Notes: a model not told the origin generated them from the letters alone. A stretch of DNA of 46,029 bases, filler included, from Streblomastix strix (GCA_008636045.1; 2 parts of 2 records of this genome joined end to end with filler, not necessarily neighbours in it), one strand, 5' to 3'; positions 11,760 through 46,029 are shown, numbered from the whole stretch's first letter. Program-made: numbers and translations.

Positions 11760-12350
11760 TAATATGGCAACATTTACATTAATTCTAATTCCCTTATATC
11801 TAGCAAGTAATGGATGTAATGAGATAATCATTAACTCTCTTGATAAATTAAACAATTAACGGCTCCTTATCCTTAAGATTATTTGGAAAGCAGCTATTAA
11901 ATAAGCATGTTAATAAAAAATTGAAGTTAATTAAATTTATTTTTTTAGTTTCACTGCTATTTAGATGATTTTTTAATTCGCTGATGTTTAATAGCTCCAC
12001 CAGCAAGCTCTCCAATAACATTAATATTTGGTACTTATTTCATTGAACTCTCATCAAATATAATTCAAACAAACGCATAACACAAGTAATACGTCATTGG
12101 AATAGTAGATATATTAGTAACATCAGGATATGATCTAGTTCCAATGAATTATTTGAAACCATTTTAGTTCTATGAAGGATATAGCATATGTATTAATAAT
12201 TTCTTTTGTCAAATTTCCTTTCAAAATCACCTACATATTAGTTTTAGAACTTAGCTTTGAGGAGTTATAACCTCTCATAAATGAATTGTCAATAGATGAC
12301 TACTATGCAAAAATATTTTTGTTAGGATAAAGTGTTCTAATAGCTATACT
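11760..12350. mobile_element. Relic of a Polinton-like virus: capsid 3' end (- strand) converging on a PolB-tail-like fragment (+ strand)
   Basis: Minus 12350-11980 gives LYPNKNIFAQQSSIDNSFMRGYNSSKLSSKTNMQ...GTRSYPD...VIGELAGGAI, matching YYPNKYMLAWKLSTDDSFMRGYNST..ARTNIQ...GTRSYPM...VIGEIGGSTI at 42525-42894. Plus ~11870-11925 gives KIIWKAAIKQAC, matching KTIWEAAIKYAC at the end of the PolB frame. Confidence 0.75.
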
Positions 12351-12899
12351 TCCACTATACAATGTTGGTAAAATGAATATGGGGTCGGATTTGCCCAATT
12401 CAAGGTATGTAACTGAATAAGTTAAAAATAAATTTATACATATATTCCTAAATAAATGAAATATTTATTCAATAAAATAAAAAAAATGCAGCATTCAAGG
12501 AGAATTATTTATATTTATTTTTAATAAATTTTAAGTGTAAAAATATGTGTAATTGATTTATTATATAAAATTTTGAATAAAAATAATATTATTAATACAA
12601 ATTATTTTTATTATGATTATTAGCTAATTCAAAATTCCTTCAGTTGTGGAAATAAAAAAAATTAATTTTAAAAAATTTATTAAACTAAATACAAAATCAC
12701 AAAACATTAGTGATTATCAACTATTTATCCTTTAGATAGCTCTTGAATAAAGTCAAATTTGTCTTAATTTATTGTTCTATCAATCAATATTTCTTGCAGA
12801 ATCTGACAATTAGCTGGAAATAAGAGCTTTTCTTTTCTTTCTTACTTTTTTATTTTAAGTTCCTTCCTAATTTTTTTCTTTAATATTGTTATTATCAGT

Positions 12900-17749: not shown

Positions 17750-20130
17750 AAAACAGTAATAAATATCATCCTTCGAATATACTAGAAGTTATATTGTACT
17801 CGCTTCCTGAATTTTCAAGGTTTGATTAATCGTTCTCATTTTCTGTTTCAATGAGCTTTTTTCGTTTGTTTTATTTTTATGAACTTGATTTTATCTTCTT
17901 GCTATTCCTCTTCTTCTTCTTCTTCTTCTTTGCATTTTTTGCACTAAAATCAAATTCTTCTGAAGAATCATCATAAAAAATTATTATTATATCATCCTAC
18001 TAACTCCACTTTTTCTTGATTTTTCTTGAAATGGTTTAAGTTTTTTCTTATGTTTCATCTTTTAACATTTAATTCATTCTTTTTCTTTATTTAGATGCTT
18101 AATTTTTTCCAAAGACTTAAGAATCATTCTTCTATTTCTTTTTCGAGCTTCCCTGATATCTACATGATGCCACCCTTGTTAGTAAGTTGACCTCATCTAA
18201 ATTCGAGCGGAAGTATTTGAGCTATCATAATTACCTAAAATCTCATTGTTTCTTTCTTGAAAATGAAGAAATCTTGATGAATCAACTAGATTATACTTAG
18301 TAATATATATTCTTCCAATTGTTCTTGTATAATCAATAAATTCACAACTATATTAATAACCACTTTTAGACATTATTCTGAAATTGGAGGAAAAGGTTTG
18401 CAATAATTAATTATATATCCTAATTGGTTATGAAAGCCTTTATAAATTTAAATAATTGCTTATTAAGCTAAAAAACGAGTCGCATAAATTTTTGCCATGA
18501 TTTTCACTAAAAAAATTAATTCTTATTTCTTTATTTTTTCTAATTTCAGATAGTGGAGAAAGTAACATCCAAAGAAGAAATCCATTCTTCATAACCCCGC
18601 CCCGTCACTCCAAGTGTAGACAGTTTTTGCAGATTGAAGAGGATCTTGGCTGAATGCATACAATAGGCATGTTGTTACTGCTATGAAATCCTTCTTTAAT
18701 ATTTCTGATGTGTATGGAATATATTTTTTTGTTAATTTTTTTGATAATTTATCTATATATATTATAACTGCAGCAGACATCTGCACTTGCTTTTTCTAAT
18801 AAAAGTCCTAACAAAGTTGCTCATCATCTTGAGGTATTGTTAGATCTTCATTAAAGTCATATATTATAATAATTTCATCCTCATTCAAGTTTTATTACTA
18901 CTGTTTGAATATAAATCTTTGAGCATTTTTGCTTTTTAGATGCTAAATATATAATTCATATTAATCCTACTCTTATTATGTTAGTTATTCTTTCTTTTTT
19001 ACTTTTTTTAAAATGTCTTTAATTCTATAACAAATATCACAGACATCAGAGCGTACTTTGACTCTGCAAAAGAACGGTCTCATAATCTTGACGAATTGCG
19101 AATAACAAATTTTAGTATATTTTTATTAAGATAAATATTAAAGATAATGATTCCTTAATGACTAATGATATTGTCTAATATTATATCTTTTGAATTTATC
19201 ACATCTTTAATAATTTCCTTTCTCTTAATTCTAATCTTAATCATTATTCAAATTATTATTATTTATTACAGGTTCTACCTTATTAAATTTTGATATTGAA
19301 ATTGGAATTTGTTTCAATAAAATTTATTCAATAAATGACTTATCTTTTGTTGGGGATCTTTATTTTTGCTGAAGAAGCTGAAATGGCCCCTCTACTTAAA
19401 GCTATTCCTCATTTTCGAATAGAGTTATTGCATATTCTTATTTTTATATTTAATCATAATCTTAATCAATTTCTCTCCAAAAGAAAAATCTAGTCAATTC
19501 TGACTGTTCAATCATATAATTATATACATGAATTCGTTCCTCATAAGTGAGAGTATTAGAAGGAGAATGTCCAAATCTACTTACAGCCAAATCATTATGT
19601 TGTGCAGCGTAATAATATTAGTTGTATGATTAATCAAACTCAGCTTCATCTATTTGTTTATAGCTGAAAAAAGGGCATATGCATTTCATTAATAGCTCGC
19701 AATATTACTCAGGAATTAGTTTCATAAATTTTGACAATTTTTTTAGCATTTCATTCATTTAATCTTAATAAATAGATTATAACCAATATAAATACATTAT
19801 TTTTTTAAAATAATTTTTAATAACTTATTCATTATTTAATATTCAGACCTATATATAACTATACAGCTTAATCCTTGATTTGTTTTCCAATTTCGGTGTG
19901 CTCAAATAAATATTTCATATTCAGTTAAGGAGAAACTAAGGAGAGTTTAGGTAAAAATTTGAAAAAATGTTAATTCCATGCAGTCTGGTGACTTCCTTTG
20001 AGACTTGTAACAGGATTTATTTTAAGATCAAGAGAAGCTGTTTCTTTTATGAATGATTTTAAACTAAAGACCGGAGTAAGCTTTTAATTTGGAATTGAAT
20101 CTAATTTTGGCTCTAATTCAAATTCTTAAC
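17750..20130 (-). pseudogene. Hypothetical host protein with Lys/Glu-rich C-terminus, interrupted by several TGAs
   Basis: Long code-6 reading stretches (EFELEPKLDSIPNQKLTPVF...; TLTYEERIHVYNYMIEQS; QMSAAVIIYIDKLSKK...) with in-frame TGAs (e.g. 18589). Family not recognised. Confidence 0.4.
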
Positions 20131-21100: not shown

Positions 21101-22979
<1,879 letters not shown>

Positions 22980-23081: not shown

Positions 23082-26000
23082 TATGCTTCACTTAAAAGTG
23101 ACATTTTAGTTCCATATCTTGAGTCTCAATCTACAATAGCTTATGTATCTAATAGTTAAACTGGAGACGATATATATCCAGAATTTAATGTAGCTTTTGG
23201 AACTTTGTCTAACCATGGAGGGCAGGTATTTGTGCTAGATGACGCGTTCAATTGTATTGGGACAACTATATTTGCTATCAATTAAGAAATAACAATCAGT
23301 CCAAGTCTACCAAATACAAAATTATACAATTTGATGGTGTCATCCAATCCTTTATACGTTACGAGCTTTGGACTGCTTATAATAAGTGACTTCAATGCTA
23401 TACAAGGTGATGATACAGAATTAGGAGCTTCATCTGGAAGGAGTGAATTCTTCTACATCGGTGGTTGGGCCGAAGTGAGATTAACTAAAATCAACTTCTC
23501 AACTAATTATAGGCCAGGTGTAACTGGAAGAACTTTCATCTCTATATCTACTGGTTCACTTCTATTGGATGAATGCAGTTTTAGCGGTGGATAATTTGTT
23601 CAATACGATTCTTAAGTAACATTATCCAATCCTTAAAGGATAGTAATCAAGAAGAGCAATTTTACAGATGCTTTAGGATACGGTCCTTATTCAGCTGCAC
23701 TTGGTTTCACCTCCGTTTCTGATATAAGCCAAATATCAATCACAGATAGTATATTCTCAAACAATAAATAGTCGACACCAGGTGGAAGTACTTTTTATGC
23801 TGGTGCGATACACGTATCTTTCCAAGGTGCTAATCATTAAAGATTCGACTTTTCCAGGAATACATTCACTAACAACAGGGGTTAGATTGCAGGAGCAATC
23901 TACATATAGTATCCTTATGCGCCAGCAGTAACTTTAGATAAGTTCATTTTTGACGGGTGCACTTTCAGCAATAACACTTTAACCAATTCTCAGTAATCTG
24001 ACATCTACTTCAGTCATCCTTTGAATGCTTACTTTAGTGCAACTGGATATTATTATCACCCGTTGGAAGTAACAAGTGATCCTAGCGCAGCTGATGAAAC
24101 ATTAGAATTAACACTTCAAAGAAACATCCCTAATTCTGAATTTTACAAATTCAAGACAGTTTCCAGTGCTTTAATCTTTGCTGGTCGTTTCCGTGATTAT
24201 CCGAAGTCCCCAATAACAATAATTGACTCAATAACAAGTCTCACTTCTGAAGCAATCACTGGTAATGACATTATTATACAAGGAAAGAGAAAATTGACTG
24301 ATACCACAACTCAAAGCACAATTAGCAGTGATGTTGATACTGATTCTATATTTGTATTCAGTGGAACTAATGATGTGCTCCGTTGGCTGACGTTTGTGAG
24401 AGTTGCATAATCCAGTGCTACTGTTCTAATTGATGTTATTGGTGGAAGTCTTACTGTTGATAGTTGCACTTTTAATGATCGGAGCGCTGTAACATCTACG
24501 TAACCAGAATTTACATTCATTAAAGCATCTGGGACTTCAACTACAGTATTAAACTCAATATTCAATGGAAATTAATATGATAATGGAGCTGCCATCAACA
24601 AAACTAGTGGTATATTGAATGTTGAGAAAAGCATCTTCACTGGAGCGATAGCATAAACTGGACCATTCATAAGATTAAGAGGATCAGGAGCCAACACAAT
24701 TTCTTCAAATATATTTAGAAATGTAACATATTATGGAAGTCTCGTTCCAGGTACTATCAATTTTGCAGCTGTGATTATTGACACTGATAATTCTGTTAGT
24801 AGTATCAGTCTGAACACATTCACTGGTTTAGTGAACGGTCCTGGCATTACCATAGACTCAACGCTGTTCACTGTTACATTGAACTCAAATGTCTTCAGAG
24901 ATAATGGCCAGTCAATTCTTTAAGCTGGAGGAGTAAGAATTACTAAAGCCGATGCAAGAGGTAGTTTCACTGCTCTATATAACACGTTTTATAACAACAC
25001 TGCTACTCGAGCAGGAGTAATTTTTGCTGACGTTTCATCAGGAACTCCAACTTATGTCATACAATATAACCTATTCATTAACAACACTGCAAATGCTGCA
25101 GTTGGTAGTAAAGCTAATGACATCTTGATTCTGAGCAATTGCACATATAGAATAAGTGATAATGTTTAGATTGATGGAGACAGTTCAGATGCATTGATAT
25201 AAATTAGAGATGATGTGATAGAGATTGCCAATGCATATTCAATTGTATTACCTTATTAATACTAAAGAGATGTTTGCATATTATTATTTAATTAATTAAT
25301 ATTAATTAAACACTTTAAAAATTATTTTTATTCTTAAATATTTTCTAATTTATTATTTAGATTCATGTTAGAGCTGGTGGAGAAAACCTTCCATATGATC
25401 CAGACCATCCAGACGTTTCAATTGGATCTTTTGGTAATCCACTGAAAACGATAGATTATGCAGTGAATTAAAGAGATAAAGCTGGGAACCTAGATCTTGT
25501 ATTATATAGATAAAACTATCCATTGTAATACCCACTCTGGATTTATGATGATGATATTACTATAAAAGATGAAGTATTCTGCTCAAGTCCATATTACACA
25601 ACAGATAAATCAGTAATAAGTGCTTCTTACGGTTCAAGTCATGCATTCTCCATCAGAGGAGGATCGTTTGTTCTAAATGCCATCAATATTGATATTACGT
25701 CTAGTGTATCTCCATATGTGCTTATTTTCATTACAGGATAAGGATCATTTGAAGCTAAAGATGCAAGTATTACAGTTGCCGCAACAAATTCCAAACTCAT
25801 TGATTCGAATTAATTCATCAAATCATTCAAACTAAAGAATGTCAACCCAGTCACATTTACAGGATAATCTTTATCATCTTCCCTTATTAGCACTGTTCTT
25901 AATGATGTCAGTACATTTGACATAAGTGACAGTACAATAGATGCTCGAAACAACCAGAGATATGCTTCATTAAGAATTGATGACACTCCTGTTAACATAA

Positions 26001-29779: not shown

Positions 29780-32700
29780 ACTATCAAACGGCACAAAGAG
29801 TCTCGCACAAAAAGCAGCTAGAGTAATGAAGATGTGTCCACAGGCTTTTCGATTATGATAAAATGTCTACTTTCTTTGAGCTAGATAGAGACCTAGCTAA
29901 GTTCGAGTAGCAATTACGAAACGTTCACTAGAATCGAGGATGACTTCATGGAAGAGAAGGAATGTGAGGTCTACGTAGGCGAGCAAACAGGTGAAGTTCT
30001 GATGCTGTTTCGCGGTCTAGTGAAAGCGGTAGTAAAGGAACAGGGGCAGTTCAGAGTTCTCAGTAATGAAATGTAAGACTCATAGTATTAGGAATTCGAA
30101 TCAGAGGAAGAATTTAGATTGTTGTTGGCATATACTTTAGCTGATGCAGCACTAGTCAAAAATTTGCGATAGCACACAACAATTCGAGCTTCATAAACTA
30201 AGATATGAGCGTTTCTCGACACCGAATAAGACATACCAAAACTAACAGAGTCACAATAAATGTAGCCCGTATAACGCAAATGAGAGGAAGAAGCGCGAGT
30301 TACCCAAGCTACGAATCTGCTACAAGCGCAATTTAAATAATAAAGGATACATTATTATAAGTTCAATTCAATTGAAGATCAGATGGTAGCGTAACATTTA
30401 ACATCTATATTTATAGGAATATTGAAGAAAGATGCATGCGAATTTGAAAATCTTAATTACATGATCTAACTAATCGAGAAACAATAATTATTTATTAATA
30501 TCGCATGAAGTGAAACTAACACAGTATTCTCGATGCTAGAAATATAACCAACACTACATGAAGAAGGACATGAATATTCGAGAATGATATTATATGCAAT
30601 ATCAATTGTAATTTAAAGTCCTGCAAGCGTGAAATATTAGATTGCAGGAGGTGACGTATAGGAATTAGTAGGAATGATATTCAAAATATTCAAGGCATAA
30701 CTTTCGTCGATAGGTGATGTACAACGAGAGAGAGAATGCAGACATAGAAGCTTCTAATATGTAATCGTCAAAAAAGATATTTTGTCCAAATAATCGAAGT
30801 TCAACAAGTCAACAATATCTGCTTTTGTTAATTAAAGGATAGTTGCATATTAATTTGATAATGTTAACAAAATTAGGAGAAGAATGAGATCAAATTAAAG
30901 AAGACTTCAATATAAACCGAAGGCAAGATTTTAAATAAAATTCTAATTCAAAAGATAAAACAATGCAACTGGCAATGAGCCGAAAGAAAAGTATAATTCC
31001 TGATGGGTCATAAAAATCAATATTATTGTACTCTTACGCACATCTTAATCCTACTCCATTTCACGATAAACTCCATACGTATTCATCAATTATAGATATA
31101 GCCAAGACAGATAACCAACAATTATCCTGTTCATATGATCGCCAAGAAGACATTCCTAAAGCTCTTTAACAGATTAAAATAATGCAGTGCGTTGCGAACT
31201 TTCAGTTTTTTACCCTGCCTCAGATAGAGATAAAACGGTGCGTCGGAATTAAATGGCCTTTGACTCTGTCTTTATAAGAACAGTTTGTTTGGAATCATTA
31301 GTCTTGAACTTTGCAATACAATAACGCATAGTAGTGAGACGGGAATTAAATTCCTTGGACCCTACAACAAATGATTAAAGGGAAGTGCGTTGGGATGAAT
31401 TTGCATGGAATCCTGCAAAAGATATAGCGGCGCATCGGAAATTACTGGCATTTGACCATTCAATAAACAAATAAGTTATAAATTTCAGTTGCGAATAACA
31501 TTAATAACTCGAAGAAGGTGATCGAACAATCTACAATGAGAATATTTGCAACTTAACAGCAGTAGTGGCTTGACAATCAGGAATAAAATATCATGGGTTC
31601 CCTATCCTGCGAAAATATCAAGAACAAGAGTAAAGAAATGAGTTTCAACCAATCTAAAATGAAAGAAAAAGAAGATCCACACATTATAAATTTCAATTTG
31701 TTATAAGATAAGCATATACAATGGCTTTGAGGCTTAATTACAAGATGCAAGGAGAAAAATTACTTTTTAATTGGAGCAATTTAGCGAATTGTTTCGAAGA
31801 TTGGAAACAAATCAAAGCAGATCAAATAATATCAATAGGAATAAATGTATGTTGGAGGCACTTAGCGAGCCCATAGATCTTGAATTAAAACTGCATAGTC
31901 CCGATACAAAAGAGATCGGGGGAATGCAAGATGACACTTTGTAAGATAATAGATAAAGAATAAGAAGAATAGACAATAGAAAAGGACAACTTGGAATATC
32001 TAAATTAAATAAATCCTAGTTTTACCATTCAGAGGTAATATAAGAACATATCACGTTAAATGTCAGACTTTATAGTTCTCTATAAAGATTTATAATCGAA
32101 ACATTTCATTATGAAAAACATGTGCACTCATCGAAAAATGCTAAAAATAGGAGATTTGATGTTGAAGATAGATCTGAAATCAGCGTCCAGTCATGTAATA
32201 GTGGACGAGGACTTTATACCATATCTCAGATTCTCGCTTCTGAATAGATATTATCAATATTGTTCGATAAGTTTCGGAGTGAAACATGCACCTCTCACTT
32301 TCCAAATGACACTTTGACCAATGATCAGAAAAACTATAGAAGAATTGAGAGTTAGAATTCTGATGTATGGCGACCATGTCATTATCATACACTAAGACAA
32401 ATTAAAGTTATTAGAAGCAAAAGGTAGCATAATTAACATCTTGACGAACTTCGGGATGGTTAATTGATACCAATAAAGATCAGTTGATGATGATAATGGA
32501 GCGACAAGCTAAGATGAAAGGACTGATATAAAAATGAAGAAGGAAAACACAATTATAAATAATAACCAAGATAAAATTTCTGGCTTGCTTCATTGGTTCA
32601 CTTAATTTCTTACGTCTACCGAATAGGAAAATTGGTATTCACGAACAAAAATTAAATAGAAAGAATGGAAGATTCAGGAGGTTCGTATGTCTGATCCCAG

Positions 32701-34140
32701 ATAATTGAACGATAGCTCAGGATAGTCTATCGATATTTTAGAAAGGAGAAGTTACATCTGTCAATTCACCAATCCCATTAATTTAATCTACTCCAACCAA
32801 AATAGAGAAAAGGAAGGTAATTGCTATGATGTTAGCACCGAACTGGCCATCCCAATCACGGTGACCGAATCTAATAAAGTTGATCTAGAAGTGGATAATC
32901 GTGGGAAAAAGCGTAAACATATTGATTTCAGGAGGGAGAATGAGAAAATAAAGAAAATTCCTACCTCCTAGAGAGATAGTAGTCGCGATATTAGAGGTAA
33001 TAAAATGGTTGCATACCATTTGTGGCTAGCGCAGGCACTTATTAAGCTAATTATAATATAACTGGATGATTATAGTGAAAAAAGAGAAGATATACTTAAA
33101 ATTGAAGATCCTGATGTGATATTTGTAAATATTGTAACATATCTCTTGGAGTAGCAAGCAAAAGATTTAAATTATGCGAACTGTTGGATTATTATAAACA
33201 ATTTATTCAAGCCTCAATTGTTACTTAACTAAAAAGTTGATAATTCTACTGTAAGTTAGATAATGAATAAGCAGCAAACGGCTTTAAGGAAGGATAGGAA
33301 GGAAGAGCTACCTTATGATTTGAACATATTTCTGAGATACGTATAAGGGAATAATCAAGTAAACACAACACTCTCCAGATAACAACACTTAATTTTCAAC
33401 GTCACTTCAATAATGGAATTATTCGCATAGCAATTAATAGAAATTCAGAAAATAAAATCTGCCAAAGATAGAAGAAATTCATTTATAATCCAAACATCCA
33501 AATTCAAGGGTATAAGCTATGATGTCTCATTATCGTTTAGGCTAGTGTAGAACAATTCAGTATGCCAAACTATATGGATCACATCATAGTTAGCCAAAAG
33601 AAGGAATGAAAATAGATTCAAATCGATATTTTAGCTGGAATCAAAAAGAAAAGAAGAAACATACGATTAAATATCTAATGAAGTTCTTATGATAATGAAT
33701 GCAGTAGGAGTAATCTATAGAGAAACAGTTGTTTCCATTCGAAAATTCACTTTTACTAAAAGAATAGACTTAAGAGCAACTAAACTGGAGATTGATCGCT
33801 TCTTTATGCATGCTGATGGCTCTGAGGTCTTTCAGGGGCATTTTTTAGGAGCTTGAAAGATAAGATCTGCAGGAGACATGCAAACTTAGATAGATAGCTA
33901 GTATTTCAATAAAGATTGTACAAACTGATTATTTGAATGCTATGATAACTGCATAGTGTAGCGTAGTTGTTATCGTAGTATTCCACTTATCAGTCAGCAC
34001 TGTCTTCAATACACTCTTAAATGAACTTCACAACAATATGATAAATACGTTGAAGGAGAGTAGTATAGTGCCGGTAGACTTGCGCTCAAAACAGTTAATT
34101 TAACGGTCTAACTTAATTAAATTGGGCCTCAAAAGCGTGT
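29780..34140 (+). mobile_element. Degenerate DIRS-like retrotransposon, copy 2 (internally deleted)
   Basis: RT ~31900-32450: KIDLKSASSHV, YYQYCSISFGVKHAP, ILMYGDH (YxDD decayed). RNase H is largely missing. MT remnant MLAPNWPSQ at ~32830. YR remnant ~33000-33860 (YDLNIFLRY; VSIRKFTFTK..IDRFFMHADGS). Boundaries are approximate. Confidence 0.8.
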
Positions 34141-34553
34141 AAAACAGCCTAAAATAATCAAATCAATAGTTAATTCGACCTATGTTTTGAATATTTCCTG
34201 TAGGAAATTATTTATGTAGTATTTTATTACATTATTTCTTGCCATGATTGCTCTAAATCAAACAATTTCTATTTTTATTAGCGTTTAGGGGTTCCTCTTG
34301 CCTACATTATTAATTTGTTCTATTAAGCTTAAGTAATTATTTTTAGACCTTTCTTTCCATTCTCGAAGCACTTAATTTGTTTCTTATCTCGAATAAAATA
34401 TCCAACATCAAAATATTCAGTATTTGTTCCATTCTCCATCATAAATTTATAAGCTTATGACTTATCCATTTAATAATCAGAAATCTTTATCGAATTTAAA
34501 TGAAACATGGAGTTGAACGGAATTAATTACGGCTCTCTAAAAGTAAGAAGTAA

Positions 34554-35237
34554 ATGAAAGAATTGACTGATCCAAATAATTAATAAAGATTACAGTATAC
34601 AGATAGCTTAATATCCAAGGCTATTGAAGGTAACTAACTCAATAATTAATCAGGTATTGAATAAATTAATTAATCAAGTTAATCATAACGTTAGTTCAAT
34701 AAAAATAAGTACACTGATGCAGATAGAACAACTGCTTAAGTTACCTCCATTGAATTAATTGATAAATTAGCCTAACCAATAATAAGTGAACAAATAATTT
34801 AGCCAATAATTTAGCTATCAATTCAAAATGTAATCGTGGACAATCATTTGAACGCTTATCTATCCCATCCTAATCAGGAAGTTATGAAGTTTGTAGTCGA
34901 TTGTATATGGCGAACAGTTACCCATAGAAACAAAGGTGATGACTTCATTCTATCATCGGATAATTTTATTAAATTTTGATCTATAGTAACATAAGAGAAA
35001 GAAGATGATATAGAAATTGTTTTAGAGGAAAGTATTATTGCAACACACTCATGCCTAAGTAAATAATATAGGAAGAAAGAAATAATTAGAGTTATTGATG
35101 TACTGATAAAAAATGTATCGATTAATACGTTGGATAATGTACTCTGGAATAGCGTAGAAAAATTATATCGAATAAATAAAGATCTAGTTAGATTAAGTGA
35201 AGTACCTGCAATTGAAATAGACCCCGCTGAATTTTGA
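34554..35237 (+). pseudogene. Hypothetical viral protein with one in-frame TGA (~34977)
   Basis: MKELTDPNNQQRLQYTD...CIWRTVTHRNKGDDFILSSDNFIKF*SIV...EIDPAEF*. The frame is otherwise open in code 6. Confidence 0.5.
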
Positions 35238-35266
35238 AAGTTAATTTATTTTTGTAATTAAATTAA

Positions 35267-36310
35267 ATGGATGACCTTGAACTTCCTACCTAAGAATAAT
35301 TATAAGCTATGAAAGATGAACTAGATAAAATAAAAGAGATCGATAACGAATAAAAATAGTTCGAATTATTACGTGAAAAATTAATTCCATTCATTGAATA
35401 ATAAATAATTAAGTACTTCACTTACTTTAGCTAATATATTAAAAATAAGGATGTTAATTAATCTAAAATAATGACATTAAATACTAATCAAACAGTAACA
35501 GGACATAAATAATTCACTTAAACTATCTAATCGGATAAATTTATCAAAACAGGTGGCATTGATAATCAATTATTATTAGCAAATGGATCAACATCAGACA
35601 TAAGTGATTTCTTACCTAAATAATTTCCACATGCGATGGGCTAATTGATTATTGAACCGAATAACGATATACGTAATTAAGGTATTAGGATAATGAAAAA
35701 TAAAAATAATTGGGATAGCTTTGTACTAACTGGCTGCAACGCTGACCCCACAGATAGAGATGGAGTATGGAAGATGGGATCAACTTCATCATAATTCAGG
35801 ATATAAAAATAAGAAGATGAAGCATATGATTACAAGGGATTAATTATCGATTTCGATTGCACATCACTTAAATTTAACAATTAATTAGTATCTCCTTTAC
35901 CAACTCCTCCAATTGAATAAGCTATCAAATAAACACTAACTCATGGAATGTATGAATCATTTGCTTGGGGTTAATTTACAACGTATAATGGAAGGGCTTA
36001 TATATCATTGTAAGTTACACACTCCAATCCTAACACACAGTCTTAATCCACCTATACATTATTCACTGTATTTAAGGATGAAAATAAGCCTTAATTCACA
36101 GGGACACCTTTTAATATATCTTTAAATGCTGTTTTGTTCGCGTAGAAGGTAATAGGCTATCCTATATGTTGGAATGGTGCTATCCCAATAGACTGTTATA
36201 TTGATGTTAATGGTTTTGTTAGAATTAATAAAATGTGTTAGCTTAATTTACCGGACGACTTTTGTGTTTAGTTTTGTGATTCGTATGCCCTACATAATTA
36301 ATCAAGCTGA
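35267..36310 (+). CDS. Tail-fibre/receptor-binding-like virion protein 1 (347 aa)
   Basis: Open code-6 frame with a coiled N-terminus, then TNQTVTGHKQF...DKFIKTGGIDNQLLLANGS (phage-fibre-like motif) and a beta-rich C-terminus. Shares modules with the 38083 gene. Confidence 0.6.
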
Positions 36311-36362
36311 TAAAAGGTAAATTGCACCAACGAAATAAATTTAGAAAAAATTGGAAATTAAT
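36298..36362 (+). repeat. Viral intergenic ~65-bp repeat, copy C, followed by tandem CTAATTCATAYATTAATT units to ~36450
   Basis: The 40-bp core GATAAAAGGTAAATTGCACCAACGAAATAAATTTAGAAAA matches copy D in inverted orientation at 37/40 positions. Confidence 0.85.
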
Positions 36363-36462
36363 TGTTAGGCTAATTTAAGGGCTAATTCATATATTAATTC
36401 AAGGGCTAATTCATACATTAATTTACTACTCTAATTCATACATTAATTCTAGTTAATTTTAT

Positions 36463-37491
36463 TCAATTTTATCGTTTTAATATATCGAACGTATTTAAGT
36501 TTTTATTTATTATGATAAATTCGTATTTCTAAAGGCTGCTATAAATAATTATAAATTCATACTCATTTAATTCTTAAACATTATTTTCCTTATATATTTA
36601 TTTCAAATCTTATTCATATATGTTAGCCCCAACGGCAATCACATGGCATAAGACACGAGCTGATTTAAACAAATAACTCGGCCGTTAGGCGCAGAAGAAT
36701 ATGGTATTTTTACTATGCCTGCTATCACTAACCAAATGAGTGATTGATCTAGCCAGCTCACTAGTGTACCGTTAGATATCAGTATTAGATCCAATGTCAT
36801 CAAATATCATTAATGTGGAAAGTAATTATGAACTATTCAAAATTGGTATTTTTTAGAATTCTTATTCCCCATCTTATTCTATTACCTTTAATTTTTTGGA
36901 ATATTTTACTCCCTTAATTATAGGGTGAACATTGAAGCGCATAATTGTTGTAGGCTAACTAAATTCGTTAATTATTTTTATACATTCCATTTGGAAAATA
37001 TCTCGTAATCTATGTTAATATTATTTATCTGTTTCCTATTCCCCACGTTAATCTTTTTATTTATTATAATCTACTATTTATTCTTTCATTCTTGTTATGT
37101 AATCTGAATCATATCTAATATCTCGTTCTTTTAACTTCCAATAAGTATAAATTTCATTTACTTTATATTTAATTTCGTCGAATTAAGGTAGAAAAGATTA
37201 TGCTTCTGAGTAAGTTATATTAATTAATTTTATACTCTTGTTATTTAATTTAATCGCCATTGTTTCATCTGGGCCAAAGTTAGAAAAATATAATATTTAG
37301 GGATGAATGTATCGTTAATATAGTACAATTAATTTAGCCATTAGAGTTGTTTTACCACTTCTTACCGATCCAACAATATAGTGATTGGCGTTAATGAGAA
37401 AGATTGAATGTGGGGCTAATGGCCTAATTTTATATTCCTCTAATAGCGATTAATCGTCGAACGATACTTAATTTATTTATTAGGTACTCAT
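36463..37491 (-). CDS. A32-like (FtsK/HerA superfamily) genome-packaging ATPase, 342 aa, intact
   Basis: Walker A IVGSVRSGKTT, Walker B LMIFDD, then DSRHSKNTIFFCAQ (Arg-His and Gln motifs of the A32 clade). Frame checked from ATG 37491 to TGA 36463-36465. Confidence 0.9.
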
Positions 37492-37505
37492 TAAAGTTAA
37501 TATAA

Positions 37506-37880
37506 ATGAATGAGATTAGTATAATATAATTAGTTTTAAATTACTTATTTTATGGGATTAATTTTAAAGTATCAATTATTTCAGTTAGTGTACCAATCTA
37601 ATATATTTCACTGATTAAACAATTATGGGGGTATCTAGATATAATATTAGTTCCTGTTAATATATTAGTATATATAATATAATTTTGCTATCGTAGAAAG
37701 AAGATGAAGTCAAGTAGCGATTATGTTGCCGCTCTAAAGAGTAACGAATCTTCACTCAAATAATTTACCACCGAGTAATTGGAATAATTAATTAAGGAGG
37801 CAATCAAAAATAATGATATTAAACTAGCTAAGGAATATAGATATTAATTATATTTGAAGTTATTGAATGAAACAGTGTGA
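37506..37880 (+). CDS. Small hydrophobic (probable membrane) viral protein, 124 aa
   Basis: MNEISIIQLVLNYLFYGINFKVSIISVSV...WGYLDIILVPVNILVYIIQFCYRRKK...ETV*. It is divergent from the ATPase with only 14 bp between starts. Confidence 0.55.
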
Positions 37881-37889
37881 TGTTAGAAC

Positions 37890-37948
37890 TTAAACTATTT
37901 TTTAAATTTATTTCGTTGGTTCAATCTACCTTTTATCTGAACCAAATA
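37890..37948 (-). repeat. Viral intergenic repeat, copy D (inverted relative to C)
   Basis: Reverse complement reads CAGATAAAAGGTAGATTGAACCAACGAAATAAATTTAAAAAATAGTT. Confidence 0.85.
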
Positions 37949-38082
37949 ATTAGTGTAAAGTTTAAGCCGCGATTTTTCGCGGGTAGTTTGGTATAGCCTA
38001 AATTAGGCAGGACCCCAACTTTAGCCCGATAATTGATGTCAGTTCAAATTTGAGCCAGCCCTTTATTTTTGTCAGTGCTTAA

Positions 38083-39776
38083 ATGTAATAGATATAAGTG
38101 CTCACCAATTAATAAAGATCTGTTATTAGTTAATTAATTTCGACATAGATACAGTATTATTTGTAGTATGTGAAAAATAAAAGTAGTAGCTCAGGTGTAA
38201 TATAAGATGAAAACTACTAATTATTTATAGATAACTAATCCGCGTTAGTTTATGCCGATAAATAATATATATCTGACGGGTAAGCTAGTAACTTTGCTCT
38301 AAAAATAAATACAGATGGTAAGTTAATAGTTAAAGATTTATAGGTGTTAAATTTGGACTTTATATAATAAATAGTTTAAATATAATAATAGATAAATTAA
38401 CTTCAATAAAAATATGGTTAATAATCTGGGGATATTAATAATATAAATTAATCAATTACATTAATTTAGCAGGAGTTAGCTCGACAAACTCATTTTAGGG
38501 GTTATTACCTCCTTAACGCTAATATAATTAATCCAACCTCTAGTGCTACAGGTGATTTTGCTTTCTCCGCTGAAAGTGGTACGGTTTGGATGTATGAATC
38601 AGCATGGTATGACAGTGGATAATTAGTTCCTGATTAAGTGACCCCCGCTAGTTATGAACTACCCTTAGTTGATGGTACAGCTAGTGCAGGGATTAGTACT
38701 TCATATAGCAGAGGAGATCATGTTTACCTCTAACAATTAACTTATGAAGGAAATGTAACTGCAACTAAATTTATTAAGAAAGGTGGAACAGCAACTTAAA
38801 TATTATTAGCTGATGGATCAAATAAATCAATAACCGATTTTAATACAAGTGTTGTACCAAGAGCTTTTTAAATTGATCCTGCTGATGGTATATATTGGAT
38901 GTGTTTTGCTGTATTAACTATACCTAATTTTACATCTAATGGTTCATGCGGTTGTACTATGGATATTAATACTACTTATGTTACTGATTTATTTTATTAG
39001 ATTAAGTTGAATCTTAGAATATAAAACGGATATAATAGAAGATTTGAAGCTATTCAATTAGGGTCTGTATAAACAGATTTTATGATTTGTGCTGATACAC
39101 CTGAAACTTCTCTTATTTTAAGATTCTATATGAAAGTATTTACAAACAGTACTTATATACTTTTTAACATTAATTTATCATAATTTTCTGATACAAATGT
39201 TAGTAATAATTTTATACTATAAGATAATATAAATTAATATAATATAACTACTGATACATTACTTACTGGATCATTATTTACAAGTGCCGCTATATATAAA
39301 ATCAATTCTTAAACTTAGGAGGTAAAATTAATGGAATCGTATAAATTAATCCAACTACCACCAATTATTCATAAGGAATTAGAATATCACGTAATGCTGG
39401 AGGTTGTGGAATATATTTAGGTGTAGATCCAAATTAAACTTCAGGATAAATTGCAAATTAATGGGCTATCTATATTCCATACTCAGATTATGGTTAAAAT
39501 CCTTTGGGATTAACAATTTCATTAACAGGATAAGAAAATACAGCTAATCGAGGACTACGTATAAGTGCTGATGGAAACACATTAATATTCAATGGATCAG
39601 TAATTGCTGGCGCTGGTGCAACAAATGGTGCATCAAATGGTTCTGTTAATTACTCAGCTGGTAATCCGATTTTATGGGGAGTTAATAGTGTAGGCACAGA
39701 AGGTGGATTCTATAGCGATGGACCTAAAGTATATTGGCGAGCTAAACCAGTAACGTTAGGGGCTGTTCCTCCATGA
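38083..39776 (+). CDS. Tail-fibre-like virion protein 2 (~564 aa; one frameshift near 39290-39315)
   Basis: PLVDGTASAGISTSYSRGDHV (phage-fibre 'GTA..G....ARADHVH'-like), ATKFIKKGGTATQILLADGS, GIRISRN...GLRISADGNTLIFNG. The span is 1694 nt, which requires one frameshift. Confidence 0.65.
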
Positions 39777-39796
39777 TTAATTTTATTTTTATACAA

Positions 39797-40024
39797 ATGG
39801 TTTAGTTATTATAGGTTGCTATCAAACTTGGATAAAAGATTAACGCGAACAATACCGAGATATATTATATTTATTAAGCTCTAATTGAACCAATTAAATG
39901 TGAGGAAAATGAAAAAATAATTAACGAAGCAAACATAGAAGATGAAGGGGAATATATTGGAGATAAGTGTTAGGAAATGATTAAATATATTAATTACCTA
40001 TCGATAATAGCAACATATGATTGA
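39797..40024 (+). CDS. Small hypothetical viral protein, 75 aa
   Basis: ATG 39797 to TGA 40022-40024, MVQLLQVAIKLGQKINANNTEIYY...; directly follows fibre gene 2. Confidence 0.45.
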
Positions 40025-40705
40025 ATCAGATTTAATTTAACGAATAATAATTACTAAACTATTTATTTCCTACATCAGATACAAAATTATTGTATATTTA
40101 TTTTTCCTCATCATTTGTCTCAGTTAATATATACCGCTTTAATTTTTCAGCTTGAGTACTACTTAATTATTTATACTAGTTATATTAATCAATACATTTG
40201 TGATTATTTTAAGCGTAAGTTTTATTAAGGTATTACTCTTGCTCTGCTTACTTATTAAAAAATTATAATTTTTTTTATTGGTGATCAAATTACTATTTAA
40301 TTTTTTTCAACTCTTATGATAATAGTGGTTAATCTAATTAGGGCTACATTAAGTCCTTTAACTATTAAATTATTTCAGATATTAGATCCTCCTATAAATT
40401 ATTTTTGGTTAATTGTTTGATTAATTATTTCAATTATATTATTAATGATTCCATTTAATTAGCGAAAAAAATCAATTATTAATTAAATTTTTCGATTAGT
40501 GTACCTAATCAATTGGATTAGGTTAAATATGTGTAGGTTTAATAATAATTACATCACTTCTCATCTATGTTGAAGTTAACAATTTAGCTAAAGTATTTGG
40601 AACATATCCCTAAGCCTAATTTACCCCACTTAATATTTTTGAACCAAAGTTCTTATTAATATTAACTATCATATTTAAATATAAAAATAATTATTGAGTT
40701 TGGAC

Positions 40706-40909
40706 TCATCGATTAAGGAATTTATTTGCCATACCTGCAGCACCTCATACTCCTCTGGCTATCATACCTGCGGTTGGATTAATTGCACCTAATGGACCTG
40801 AAACAGCCCCCATAACTTTATGTAACACTGGCGCGACCCATTTAGCTGCAGATGTTACCCCGTGTAAAATTTTTGAGCCGAAATTCTTGAGACCTGACCA
40901 AAATCCCAT
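40706..40909 (-). CDS. Amphipathic, adenovirus protein VI-like putative membrane-lytic peptide (in-frame TGA at 40745)
   Basis: MGFWSGLKNFGSKILHGVTSAAKWVAPVLHKVMGAVSGPLGAINPTAGMIARGV*GAAGMANKFLNR*. The N-terminus resembles pVI LWSGIKNFGS. Confidence 0.6.
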
Positions 40910-40935
40910 TTGTATTAGTTTAAAATTTATTTCAA

Positions 40936-41211
40936 TCAATAAACGTCGTTCAGTGCTCCAGATTATTTAGCTCGTTTATCGAAAGCATCGCATTCGGATT
41001 ATGTTTCATCATACTCTGCAATAAATGAAGTGTTAAGAACATTAACTATTGAACCTTAATCTTTCGCATTATCCAAATAGGAATTTTTTGACTAGCCAGT
41101 AAATACATTGTTTTCTAATGGTACTAGATAGACTCGTGCTCCACTTGGGGCTAGAGGAAGTGCAACTTGTTGTTGTGTTTAGACCTGCTAAGTTAATTGG
41201 ACAATTACCAT
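40936..41211 (-). CDS. Hypothetical viral protein (~91 aa, 5' end uncertain)
   Basis: Code-6 frame ...QTQQQVALPLAPSGARVYLVPLENNVF...KQSGALNDVY*. Confidence 0.45.
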
Positions 41212-42894
41212 ACCCGCTAATACTATAGGGATATAATTAAATAAAGTAATTGAGGCTAAGGGTATGTTAACTGATAACGAATATATGCGTGCTAGAACAA
41301 ACTTTAATGGTAGAAAGACCGCCTCATTAGCGTTAGCCGATGAAATAAAGTAGGCAACTTAACATTATAATAGTAATGAAGTAATTAAATTTTGGTTAAG
41401 ATTCTCAACAGCTTGTGGGCCGTTCTAATAGATAGCTATATGTAGAGATAACACTAAATTATGGGAAACATCTATCTACGCTAGAGAACAAGCTATAATA
41501 TGTTCTAATTCACTATCTGACCTCACCGTTAATAATTTCGTTACTGTTTCACCGCTAGAAAGTATAGTTTAGGGCAAGCGCCATTGTGGTGTGTTTATTG
41601 ATATCCCCTGTGTTAATATTGATTCCAAAGGTGAAAACTTCTATTACAAAATTCCTGATCCCATTACTTTTTCTGGGGTATTAGATCTCAATTAATTGAA
41701 CCCGATATTTAACGAATTTCCTGTACTGACTAGAAATTACGCTTCATTATATTTATAACTTTGGATGACTGACTTCCTATAAGATCTAAAAGTAGTTTGG
41801 TTAAATAAATCCCGATATATTTACGATCAACATTTAGCTTACACTATGATTCCGCCGGAAAAACTTGATATTATTTCCCTACTAGATGATAGTGGAGATA
41901 TTGCTTATAATTATTATTCTGTTCGATTGATTAATTGCAAAGATTTAGATTATGCTGCTACTGACCCCAAAATAGTATATAATAATTAGATAACGCTTTT
42001 TTCGAATATTTATCTATACATAATTTATGCTTCAACATGGGGAATGAAATGGCTATAATTGATATGATTAGAGCTTAGAAAGTAATTCATTTCTCAACCT
42101 AGGTACTAAAATCATAATCATCGAATTATCCTATGGCTCGATTTGAACCAAGCAGTGGGTAAATTTAGAGTATAAAGTCGTTCTCTAACATCAAAGCTAT
42201 GCTTATGACATTCGCTATGTAATAATATCCAACATGGTTCTTTCCTATGTTATTCCACAATATGGATTTAATAATTGATTAACGACACGCTGTCCCTTTC
42301 CCTTATGAAGCACATACTTAGGCGACTAATGGTTCGATGTTTCAATGTTTCGTTGATCAGGATTTAGTTTCTCCCTCTAGCGATTTGTATCATTCACTTA
42401 CTTTCGAGAACATTAATATTAATGATAAGAAGTATTGGTATGGTAAGAATGATGGCCCTGTACCCCTATAAGACAACATATTTTATAATACTACTTTATT
42501 TACTGGTTCTAAATCAGTTAAAACGTATTACCCGAATAAATATATGCTGGCATGGAAATTATCGACAGATGACTCGTTCATGAGGGGCTATAATAGTACT
42601 TGAATAGGTGCCAGGACTAATATCCAAACTATATTAAATACTTAATTGATAACAGGTATAGTGGATAATTACAAAATTGACGATGATAATATTATCCCTG
42701 AAAATCAAAATACATTAGCCGGATTTATGGGTACTAGAAGCTATCCAATGTGCTGGCAGACCGGATAAACTCCAAAGTTACACTTCCTTTGTGACGCTAT
42801 AATTAGAGTTATGTTTGACGACAACCCTGAACCATAAGTATTAAATTTAGAAGTTATTGGAGAGATTGGTGGTAGTACGATTACCGCAGGTTGA
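41180..42894 (+). pseudogene. Probable major capsid protein (double jelly-roll; Polinton-like), frameshift ~42010 and TGA at 42601
   Basis: Large beta-rich frame in the viral cluster (HCGVFIDIP...LNPIFNEFPVL...YLQLW...HFSTQVL...PTWFFP...FMRGYNS...LHFLCDAIIRV). A homologous fragment recurs at ~12 kb. The capsid call rests on context, size and recalled similarity, not on a search. First in-frame ATG is at 41264; the N-terminus may be truncated. Confidence 0.65.
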
Positions 42895-42956
42895 TCTCGC
42901 AGATAAAAAACAGATTGCACCGCTGAATTATTTTTCAAAATAGTTAGGAAATTAAT
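42891..42956 (+). repeat. Viral intergenic repeat, copy A, starting at the capsid stop codon
   Basis: TTGATCTCGCAGATAAAAAACAGATTGCACCGCTGAATTATTTTTCAAAATAGTTAGGAAATTAAT; 57/66 identical to inverted copy B. Confidence 0.9.
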
Positions 42957-42999
42957 CAAGGAACCAATTTTGGTTGGTTGATCGAGTGTCAAAATTTTG

Positions 43000-43319
43000 G
43001 CAGTCAAAAATAATTATATATAGTATTTATGAAGTGGTGACCAATTAAATTTCGCTTATTCTATTTAACTGATACATTCATCAAAGCACTAGCGATAATA
43101 ATCAGTGATTACCTTTATTCTCTTAGTATTATATTATTCTCGTTATTTTTCACTTATGTTATTAAGTTCTTCGAATATTTACTTATACTTATTTATCTAT
43201 TCAATTGTTAATACCCACGGATATTTATTCTATCTTGGGTCTCCACTATCGTAACTTAAATTTCCTATTACTTGACCTGAACATGAAAATAAATTATATG
43301 AACAACCTGATCCTGACAT
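43000..43319 (-). CDS. Small hypothetical protein between repeats A and B (stop unclear)
   Basis: MSGSGCSYNLFSCSGQVIGNLSYDSGDPRQNKYPWVLTIEQINKY...WSPLHKYY. In code 6 the frame runs on through repeat A without a nearby TGA. Confidence 0.4.
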
Positions 43320-43433
43320 TTATATAAGATAAAAATAGTTAGGGGAAAAATTAACCCCCTTGATAAACGTTTAAATTAATGTATGAATTGATGTATAAAT
43401 TATACCTGAATTAATGTTTAAATTAATGTTTAA

Positions 43434-43499
43434 ATTAATTTCTTAACTATTTTGAAAAAATAAACAGTGGTGCAATCTGCCTTTTTTCTGCGAGATCAA
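43434..43499 (-). repeat. Viral intergenic repeat, copy B, starting at the PolB stop codon
   Basis: Reverse complement TTGATCTCGCAGAAAAAAGGCAGATTGCACCACTGTTTATTTTTTCAAAATAGTTAAGAAATTAAT, followed by AATTCATACATTAATT-type units. Confidence 0.9.
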
Positions 43500-46029
43500 A
43501 CTTTACATATCTTACTTTCACAAGCATATTTTATAGCTGCTTCCCATATCGTTTTGAAGATTGAGTGCCAATTGATACCTAATTATTCCTCGATTAAATA
43601 AATAGCTGTTTCATTCATCATTTATTGTTGGCTAAAGATCTATATAATTTGTTGCCGATAGTTTGTGTATGAATGGCGCGGCTAATTAACTCTGGGGTAA
43701 TAGAATCATTTTAGTGTGTATGCCAGTTAAGCCATTCTTATTTAGGGATAATTTAGCCATATATCCATCTTTCTAACCTAGACGAGTATTTGTACACTTC
43801 ATTACTTTCCCATCAATCGTATCTAATATATTTTATTTAGTTATAACATTTTATTATTAATTAATTCCCATTAATTTAATTATTTCTTTCTTAGCGTTAA
43901 TATAATAATTTTTTGGGGATAGAGCTATCATTACATCGCCTTCTTTTTCAATCGCTATTCCTAATAACTTCTTTTATTCAATTAGATCGTCAGTTGTTGG
44001 AAAATAATACTTATAGTTCGTATCATAAAATTATCGATCAGTAATGATTTGGCTAAATCCCTAATTAATTGGTTCATTAAAGTTACCTGCAATTGCGAAG
44101 TACATTGAATCTGTATCTCATTCAATAAAATGAAACCTATTTTTATCTAAGCACTTATACATAAAATTATATATGAAATTGAGATACCAATATTTAGCGT
44201 TATCTAGGGTAAAATAAGCTTCCTATAATGGAGTTGTACACTTACATTTATCTGTATTAAGTTAGACAGCATAAAGATTATCGTTCAATTAACGTTCATT
44301 CATAAAGTTACCAGTTAGATGCGAAATAAATGTGTCCGCTTTCGATCTTAATTTTTACTAAATTTTTCAGTGTTCATCTCATCAGAACCATAACTAGCGT
44401 TCATAACTATTTTACAAAATTAATCCAACCCCTTATTATTTGATTTAATAGCTTATATTCTTTTAGTCATAAATGTGTTAACGAAAGTATTAAATTTATC
44501 GTGTTTGGTAAATAAAATAAGTTAGCTAATGTTGTCAATTACAAAGTCGCATGTATCAACCAAGAACCATAAATAATAAGAACTGAAGGACATAAATTAA
44601 TCGTGTGTGAATAATAATTAAGTTAATTTTCGTTCTTCTTTATCAACCTTTATATTAATATTTTTCATAAAGTTATAGGAATAACTTCCAATTGTTTACT
44701 CGTTAGTTTAGTATGATAAATTTCTAAGAATAGGTGGAAAGTTAATGTATAGATTAATATCAGATATATGTCCTTTAATTGTTGCGATAAATAATTGTCC
44801 TGCTAATGTATATCTAGTTGGGGAATTAATTATATTTAAACAACGTTATTTATTTTAATCAGTAACATTAATCACTTCTTTTACTGTTCCTGCCATAAAC
44901 ATTTTATGATTAGTGTATGAATTCATTGGGTGAAATTAGCTGCCCATTACACTCGGATATAAAGAGTAGAAATCTAATCCTATGATATTAGTGACAACAT
45001 TATCTGTTTCAATTACTTTCACTTTATCCTCGTATCCTAATTTTTTTATTTTAGTTTAATTAGCTATATTTATTCTGTTCATTACATTAGATAGGCCACC
45101 AGTTATTCCATCTCTATGAGTTAAGTACACTTATTAGTTATTAATTGTTGTAGGTAAATTATATTTTTAGCAATATTTTTTTAATTATATCAGTAGCTTC
45201 ATCTCTTGATCGTTCCTATTACATTTGACCTAGTTACAATATAAGCAACACTATCGAACATTATTCTTACTATGAGATAAGGAATTTTTTATTCGATCTA
45301 ATGTAGGCTTATTTTTAAACGTAAATTATGTTTAGCAAATATAACAAGGCTATCTAAATAATTTTTTGAAATAATCATAATCACTTTCATTCACATTATT
45401 GTCCACAGGTCGATGCGCTAATTTATCTTGGGAAATATATCCTTCTACTTTAGCTTTCCAATATTAAGATGTAAGATAGAACGGGGGATCAAAACTACTT
45501 ATTGAATAAACACCATCTAATTTAAATTCGTTATAAGCCATAGAATACTTGACCGCATTAGCGCATGATGCCGTCGAGATAAATTAGAACATATCTACTT
45601 TATATTCAAAGAACAGATTAATCAAATTTTTTATCGGTTCAATCACTAATTCTGTGTCTAGTATATTATAATGTTACAAATAATCCCACCTGTTATTGAA
45701 TTACTTATAATCCTAGAGATAAGTTTAGTATTCTTTATCTGTTATTGAACTATTTTTCAACGTGTTATTGAAATCGGATTATTTAAAGGGGGTCGATTAA
45801 GACAGCTATTCTTCATAATTATCCCCCATCAAATCATATGGAAATAAGCCCTTACTTTGCTGTTAACTTGAATAATTAATAACAAATTAGTTCAAGGTCA
45901 TTGGTGGTGCTACATATAGGAAAGCATCTAAAAATTTAAGTTTAACTGATAAATTATTGTGTGAAATAATTAACTACTTACAGAATTAAGAAGTACCCAA
46001 ATAACTAGTTATTTTCCATTAACTTGAGG
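43496..46029 (-). pseudogene. Protein-primed family B DNA polymerase (5'-partial, inactivated)
   Basis: Exonuclease-region KFLDAF, KGLFPYD, YNILD; GITGGLS; motif A IGLDFYSLYPS; motif B KIVMNASYG; motif C FIE*DTDS; then LSPKNY. Frameshift at ~44340 and TGA at 44118-44120. Confidence 0.93.

Follow-up and report, generated by a model that had tools for sequence, protein, structure and literature searches.

The closest described systems are the Maverick-Polintons and Polinton-like viruses of the Metamonada group. That the genome of Streblomastix strix holds endogenous viruses written in code 6 is already known: in the parts of that survey considered here, 820 S. strix capsid matches form one cluster seeded with T. 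vaginalis, and the elements use their host's code (Bellas 2023; PMC10120064). The S. strix set was collected by PSI-BLAST with 23% identity required, cluster members are ~32% identical to T. vaginalis, and the S. strix example shown is 562 amino acids (aa) long (PMC10120064). Metamonada elements have been left ungrouped because too few genomes are available (bioRxiv 10.64898/2026.06.19.733378). Adintoviruses encode small predicted membrane-active core proteins described as cupiennin-, pX- or VI-like (PMC8502044), and such proteins, some labelled VI-like, are on record for adintoviruses, MELD viruses and adomaviruses (PMC8502044, PMC11071296, 10.1101/341131 and PMC6048507, cited as a group). 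Here we analyse a stretch of DNA of 46,029 nucleotides from S. strix, a termite-gut oxymonad (GCA_008636045.1; two parts of two records joined with filler), referred to as the window. Its positions 34059-46029 (11971 bases), readable with TAA/TAG = Gln (table 6), probably hold the left part, now decayed, of an endogenous Polinton-like virus present in many copies. An earlier note, made from the sequence alone, had proposed such a virus of a metamonad in its host's code; code-6 frames, capsid fold and polymerase all support that proposal, to which we add that this copy has decayed.

The genetic code decides what can be seen in the region. Under table 1, positions 30000-46029 contain just 6 stop-free frames of at least 80 residues, and the longest of these, 123 residues, is also the maximum within 34059-46029. 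Under table 6 the element shows 8 frames of at least 300 residues, where 200 base shuffles have 1.6 on average; a lone long frame is not significant per se, as the longest frame of a shuffle averages 350. The called genes, 13-14 in number where about eleven had been noted before, are indeed tightly packed and span 10369 of the 11971 bases (87%). Across 17 gene segments (3460 codons) glutamine is written as TAR in 243 cases and as CAR in 38 (86% TAR), so that expression would be possible only in code-6 cells; three host open reading frames (ORFs) in the window use 121 TAR and 41 CAR codons (75% TAR). The element had been called invisible to the ORF track, which holds for a standard-code track only, since NCBI lists siblings under the annotation 'hypothetical protein' and UniRef names some of them 'Major capsid protein'. 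An exact-sequence lookup of 10 window translations in the protein collection found none of them.

The element is a member of a many-copy family and has a sharp junction with the host. Coverage was taken from four sequencing runs (X1-X4; three samples, three studies), three of them termite gut metagenomes and one an organism run. In X1 the depth stays at 17.7 as far as 34057, rises to 454 across 34058-34083 and reaches thousands further in (depth summed across contigs does not equal copy number), and the step at 34057/34058 places the left end at 34059 and not at 34440 as first proposed, a start that omits the terminus and most of one gene. The terminus itself (34059-34070, +) reads AGTAGTATAGTG (AGTAGT), likely the start of a terminal inverted repeat whose partner would lie outside the window; AGTAGT is a terminus of the Maverick/Polinton type. 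Coverage by X2 and X3 begins in the same bin as the X1 step and that by X4 one bin later, with an X4 contig bearing GTATAGTG. All four runs cover the element by contigs mostly 82-99% identical, and X1 alone covers the flank cleanly; X1 is possibly the source of the window itself, and its evidence is not independent. The 5' piece of the capsid gene matched 298 protein clusters, of which the best 120 are all from S. strix (50-95% identical). This copy, in turn, is decayed and dead: a stop or frameshift breaks five genes (polymerase, capsid, one fibre-like gene, peptide and the gene at 34554), leaving the copy unable to make virus, and capsid and polymerase each hold one frameshift and one stop.

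The gene for the major capsid protein (40943-42894, +; ~650 aa, broken) was assigned by identity to a full-length sibling, P0002, and by the model of that sibling. It aligns with P0002 as two pieces in two frames (80% and 71% identical), lacks an ATG, is frameshifted near 41968 and carries a stop at 42601-42603; the family retains many full-length ORFs (644-658 aa) that are 55-91% identical. The P0002 model, built on a 93-sequence alignment including environmental relatives (pLDDT 76, pTM 0.81), superseded an earlier one of P0004 based on 37 S. strix sequences (pLDDT 42), which had no fold match among 48161 chains. When the P0002 model was compared with the PDB by Foldseek, all 27 listed rows were double-jelly-roll capsids (best E 9e-11), namely those of iridovirus, mavirus, chlorovirus, faustovirus, Sputnik and adenovirus, and the matches in BFVD were viral capsids too. 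Modelling of the sibling thereby confirmed the double jelly roll as the predicted fold of the capsid family, the fold that the earlier note had expected. The Atlas ranks Preaxostyla and Parabasalia clusters first (0.96-0.97) and places Capsid_N and Sputnik clusters at 0.95-0.96. By sequence, the capsid profile had no match under E 0.4 among PDB sequences, and none of the family members (0/93 and 0/10) matched any double-jelly-roll capsid family or DUF4106 of Pfam at E 1, the presence of DUF4106 in the library being unconfirmed. Further pieces of the family occur elsewhere. A decayed lone 3' fragment, ~45% identical to P0002, lies at 11990-12392 (-), a second old insertion 22 kb away. Two annotated S. 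strix fusions, P0292 and P0011, join capsid pieces to the C-terminus of fibre-like protein 1 (52% identical) and to an HNH domain, which suggests that gene order varies between copies.

The replication and packaging genes lie on the opposite strand. A protein-primed family B DNA polymerase with an endonuclease VII/HNH-type insertion occupies 43611-46029 (-), its 5' part being cut off by the window. It matches PF03175 at E 1.2e-5 (24.8 bits, slightly below the cut-off of 25.8) and a PHROG DNA polymerase family at E 2e-7, while the insertion matches a PHROG endonuclease VII family at E 3.7e-10. Motifs A (DFYSLYPS), B (KIVMNASYG) and C (DTDS), already noticed in the first reading of the sequence, are all present, and the gene is broken by a frameshift near 44360 and a stop at 44118-44120 immediately before DTDS. 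The packaging-type ATPase (A32/FtsK-HerA-like; 36463-37491, -) is intact, with 342 open residues, Walker A GSVRSGKT, Walker B LMIFDD and, as had been pointed out, TAA at the Gln of CAQ (36687). Its assignment rests on these motifs and on relatives: it is 33% identical to the ATPase of two environmental contigs, L001 and L003, in which the Walker A, Walker B, RH and hhhhQ motifs are conserved, and a relative's ATPase matches a PHROG terminase family at E 1.3e-5.

Beside the capsid gene lies the gene of a cationic amphipathic peptide resembling adenovirus protein VI (40745-40909, -; 54 aa, beginning MGFWSGLKNFGSKILHGV), identified through homologue clusters and PDB matches, together with a degenerate second copy at 40475-40672 (-; tblastn E 6.7e-5, 47% over 30 residues). 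The family comprises 44 homologue clusters, mostly of 67-70 residues, the window copy being cut to 54 aa by an early stop, and a homologue adjoins the capsid gene in both L001 and L003 (E 1.7e-7). The three best PDB matches of the peptide are adenovirus pre-protein VI at a non-significant E of 0.41-0.86, and its WSGLKNFGS equals pre-protein VI residues 41-49, nine consecutive identities found in three PDB sequences. The family profile reaches protein VI at E 0.35; it matches designed coiled coils and the heptad repeats of coronaviruses equally well or better, which makes the protein VI signal a generic one. None of 32 peptide members matches the Pfam protein VI family at E 1, two match cecropin weakly, and the L003 homologue does not retrieve protein VI. 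Its hydrophobic moment of 0.45 is reached by 37 of 10000 shuffles (L003 homologue 0.54, 375 of 10000). Of the marks of the protein VI family, the peptide thus has the predicted amphipathic N-terminal helix and not the significant similarity. It resembles protein VI in being amphipathic, in its gene lying beside that of the major capsid protein and in WSGLKNFGS, and differs from it in length (67 against 234-250 aa) and in having no propeptide. Judged from these features it likely acts like protein VI or like a cecropin-type lytic peptide; the earlier suggestion of a lytic peptide is hence plausible for an amphipathic protein kept beside the capsid in standard-code relatives, with lysis itself a prediction.

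Four copies of a 50-base motif were located by motif scan, all within the element and each 0-123 bases past a stop codon: at 36309-36358 (+), overlapping the stop of fibre-like protein 1; at 37888-37937 (-), 7 bases past the stop of a 58-aa ORF and in the opposite orientation; at 42902-42951 (+), just past the capsid stop; and at 43439-43488 (-), ~120 bases past the polymerase stop. Left-out copies score 33-42 bits compared with at most 12 elsewhere (91662 positions), and the best score in L001-L003, where the motif is absent, is 6 bits. Its position most likely marks transcript 3' ends. A shared hairpin is not supported, as the four copies fold differently, and a promoter role fits in neither orientation. 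Short repeats of the CTAATTCATACATTAATT type follow copies 1 (36382-36452, +) and 4 (43358-43450, -) in the same orientation, and an X1 contig links these two repeat sites on opposite strands.

The family has environmental relatives written in the standard code. A metagenome scan gave 80 pattern matches, three of which were confirmed (L001, L002 and L003); their capsids are 28-34% identical to the window's capsid family and are written in the standard code, 10 of the 16 genes of L003 ending in TAA. Capsid, peptide and ATPase are kept together in L001 and L003, and L002 ends inside the capsid gene. Further capsid relatives numbered 21 in one search and 211 in another (E 0.001 among 1.84 billion sequences, 150 listed), and four distant ones sit on contigs of 20640, 20007, 20667 and 21847 bases, the size of complete Polinton-like genomes. 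Scans of viral contigs with the capsid alignment, the four distant capsids and the polymerase, and a scan of genome contigs, returned no relative. A tree of 26 capsid rows, built without fragments and without the distant relatives that later searches added, places the 19 code-6 rows together on the same side of a branch with 100/100 support; its midpoint root serves the drawing only. Of 204 aligned pairs with TAR in the element, 34 (17%) have Gln in the standard-code relative; the figures are 152 of 3878 (4%) for non-Gln codons and 6 of 50 for CAR, the code being verified for L001 and L003 and assumed for P0166-P0170. The lineage was probably recoded once, after its split from the standard-code relatives. 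L003 itself also carries, at 5380-7293 (+), three tandem paralogues of ~200-220 aa that belong to no family and have no match in the window; a 701-aa penton candidate after them, likewise unmatched in the window, has Atlas scores of 0.91-0.92 with viral clusters, one of which contains 10% V18-19 members, and is a lead only.

By analogy with the known families, an intact sibling, likely ~20 kb long and bounded by inverted ends, would leave its site by excision or copying, and its linear DNA would be replicated by the protein-primed polymerase. The ATPase would pump this DNA into an icosahedral capsid, the fibre-like proteins would attach the particle, and the amphipathic peptide, once released, would break the endosomal membrane of the next cell, with reintegration through an integrase that the unseen right part would encode. 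Several observations weigh against the viral reading or its parts. The window ends inside the polymerase gene, and within it no right end, target-site duplication, integrase, protease or penton (single-jelly-roll minor capsid protein) is visible; family searches of 34059-46029 found none of the last three, as the earlier note had said of integrase and protease. L003, a whole contig of 13454 bases, likewise has no polymerase or integrase. The ATPase has no match to the Pox_A32 or IVa2 profiles in Pfam and further profile searches, and the P0002 model reaches solved capsids with TM-scores by query length of only 0.24-0.42 at 7-11% identity. Three motif copies are sense and one is antisense to the preceding gene, long branches meet in the capsid tree, and the direction of recoding is inferred because the standard code is ancestral.

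Three other explanations of the locus were considered. A family that spreads within the genome as a self-copying transposon, with capsid, fibre and peptide genes as relics, would account for the broken or short state of this copy and of many annotated siblings, for the lack of virion or RNA data and for a very high copy load of the kind reported for T. vaginalis Mavericks (PMC10120064). Against it stand the survival of full-length capsid ORFs over 55-91% identity, a peptide length of 67 aa kept in 21 of the 44 clusters listed and the occurrence of relatives on ~20 kb environmental contigs, and we regard the transposon as quite improbable. Improbable, too, is an intact locus whose breaks are assembly errors from collapsed repeats. 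PMC10120064 shows many such stops to be artefacts and no contig spans the element, yet the X1 depth without the siblings' letter is 76, 239 and 397 at positions 34979, 40745 and 44120, a minority there but far above the 18-30 of the flank, so that the run likely does contain the letters of the window; at 34979, for instance, the other letter makes up 26441 of 26517. The flank contig moreover matches without difference into the first 54 bases of the element. It is scarcely credible that the element is non-viral, for instance a linear plasmid, and that its protein is beta-rich by chance: protein-primed polymerases also occur in plasmids and capsid sequence profiles give no match, but the confident double-jelly-roll model with its capsid-only matches in the fold search contradicts it, and the C-terminus of the polymerase has no match among 72556 plasmids.

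For the endogenous virus, which remains the preferred reading, there is then the matter of its place among described groups. With the Metamonada-group Maverick-Polintons and Polinton-like viruses it shares the S. strix host, code-6 genes, hundreds of copies and a divergent double-jelly-roll capsid confirmed by modelling; it differs in the length of the capsid (~650 against ~530-590 aa) and in having standard-code environmental relatives of its own. Maverick-Polintons and adintoviruses (Polintoviricetes) have in common with it the protein-primed polymerase, a packaging-type ATPase, the double-jelly-roll capsid, an AGTAGT-type end and a small predicted membrane-active core protein, whereas its visible 12 kb are without rve integrase, cysteine protease or penton and its capsid is unrecognisable by sequence. 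Virophages (mavirus, Sputnik) rank near the top when the capsid is compared by structure (E 1e-10 to 1e-8), but at 7-8% identity, not above iridovirus or chlorovirus, and the window shows neither a protease nor evidence of a helper virus.

Compared by conserved words, locus tags and DUF4106 only, the window capsid probably represents a second S. strix family apart from the published one. The element could instead be one of the 820 matches already counted in PMC10120064, and the family not new, which we consider unlikely but credible: host and code are the same, PSI-BLAST can reach far, the Atlas puts Preaxostyla and Parabasalia clusters at the top, and, judged by eye, the L003 capsid remotely resembles the published example in a few motifs. 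The published 562-aa example, on the other hand, shares none of the conserved words of the window family, the supplements of PMC10120064 that were searched have no row matching any of five motif or name terms or six locus tags of that family, the screen required 23% identity, and the family members do not match DUF4106 (if that model is in the library). The phrase 'metamonad-type virus' in the earlier note is apt for the host, and less so in its published sense of a T. vaginalis-like capsid cluster, as the capsid family is probably another one. We found no paper on this capsid family, its peptide or its motif in the literature outside subscription papers, and what looks new is the ~650-residue capsid family, the capsid-adjacent 67-residue peptide and the 50-base motif after four genes. 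A bolder idea, which we hold tentatively and think rather unlikely, is that of an uncounted ~20-kb protist virus family, existing as hundreds of code-6 proviruses in an oxymonad and as standard-code genomes in the environment, whose minimal 67-residue homologue of the membrane-lytic protein VI helix, encoded beside the capsid, would be a relic of the origin of adenovirus entry and which would also offer a natural recoding series. Should the capsid family prove separate, the S. strix genome would carry a larger viral load than has been counted, and a second lineage, one with members in the environment, would join the Metamonada-type viruses. Alignable recoded and standard-code relatives make the adaptation of a virus to a reassigned code testable, and the peptide offers a cheap, small test of a protein VI-like helix in the entry of protist Polinton-like viruses.

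The remaining genes of the element have less distinct identities. Next to the left end, 34158-34508 (-) encodes a small protein of 103-116 aa without family, called from its ORF, codon use and multicopy depth, followed by a ~227-codon gene, called from its frames, at 34554-35237 (+), also without family and split by a TGA at 34977-34979. Fibre-like protein 1 (35267-36310, +; 347 aa, open) is labelled from the likeness of its single TLNTNQTVTGHKQF repeat to repeats in a relative's protein that matches a PHROG tail family, and has no significant family or PDB match. Fibre-like protein 2 (38083-39776, +), a label likewise inferred, shares 37 residues with it (E 3e-5); its N-terminus is 26% identical over 97 residues to a tail-like protein of L003 (pairwise E 0.006), it has no PDB or phage match, and its frameshift near 39291 was placed by a frame change in codon use and a 2-base difference in other copies. 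The two fibres proposed earlier thus stand as two long genes that look fibre-like on weak matches.

Smaller frames include a 58-aa helical ORF (37704-37880, +), whose DNA is related to the 5' portion of 40026-40454 (repeat I3); an acidic ORF of 75 aa without family (39797-40024, +), called by codon use; a Gln/Leu-rich helical ORF of 142 aa (40026-40454, -), called from frames and without family in the search; and a Cys-containing small ORF (43074-43319, -), called from frames, that starts at 43319 and whose end is uncertain. The frames at 37419-37880 and 40567-40890, candidates for a membrane protein, were rejected as non-coding by codon use, a weak test: 37419-37703 scores -0.07 and 40567-40887 -0.24 bits per codon, compared with +0.03 to +0.33 for 11 accepted gene stretches, and the hydrophobic in-frame extension of the 58-aa ORF from 37419 is probably not coding. 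With the membrane protein unsupported, the fibre matches weak and no penton found, the 'unusually rich virion module' was not borne out.

Outside the left end, a remnant with reverse transcriptase and recombinase-like frames at 31721-33856 (+) was rejected as the element's integrase because it lies beyond that end at single-copy depth. It is a decayed retroelement (RVT_1 E 4e-5, then the recombinase-like frame, which we take to be DIRS-like) ~200 bases before the virus end. Two further frames have no significant Pfam match: a broken reverse transcriptase/RNase H-like remnant at 8202-9825 (+), recognised by inspection, and a 402-aa ORF at 18589-19797 (-) with a CDIC motif and C-terminal SDG, transposase-like by eye. 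The flank also carries ordinary, non-viral host genes in code 6, among them, by inspection of the translations, an ABC transporter fragment (21101-22192, -) and a long beta-helix-like surface protein (23334-25445, +).

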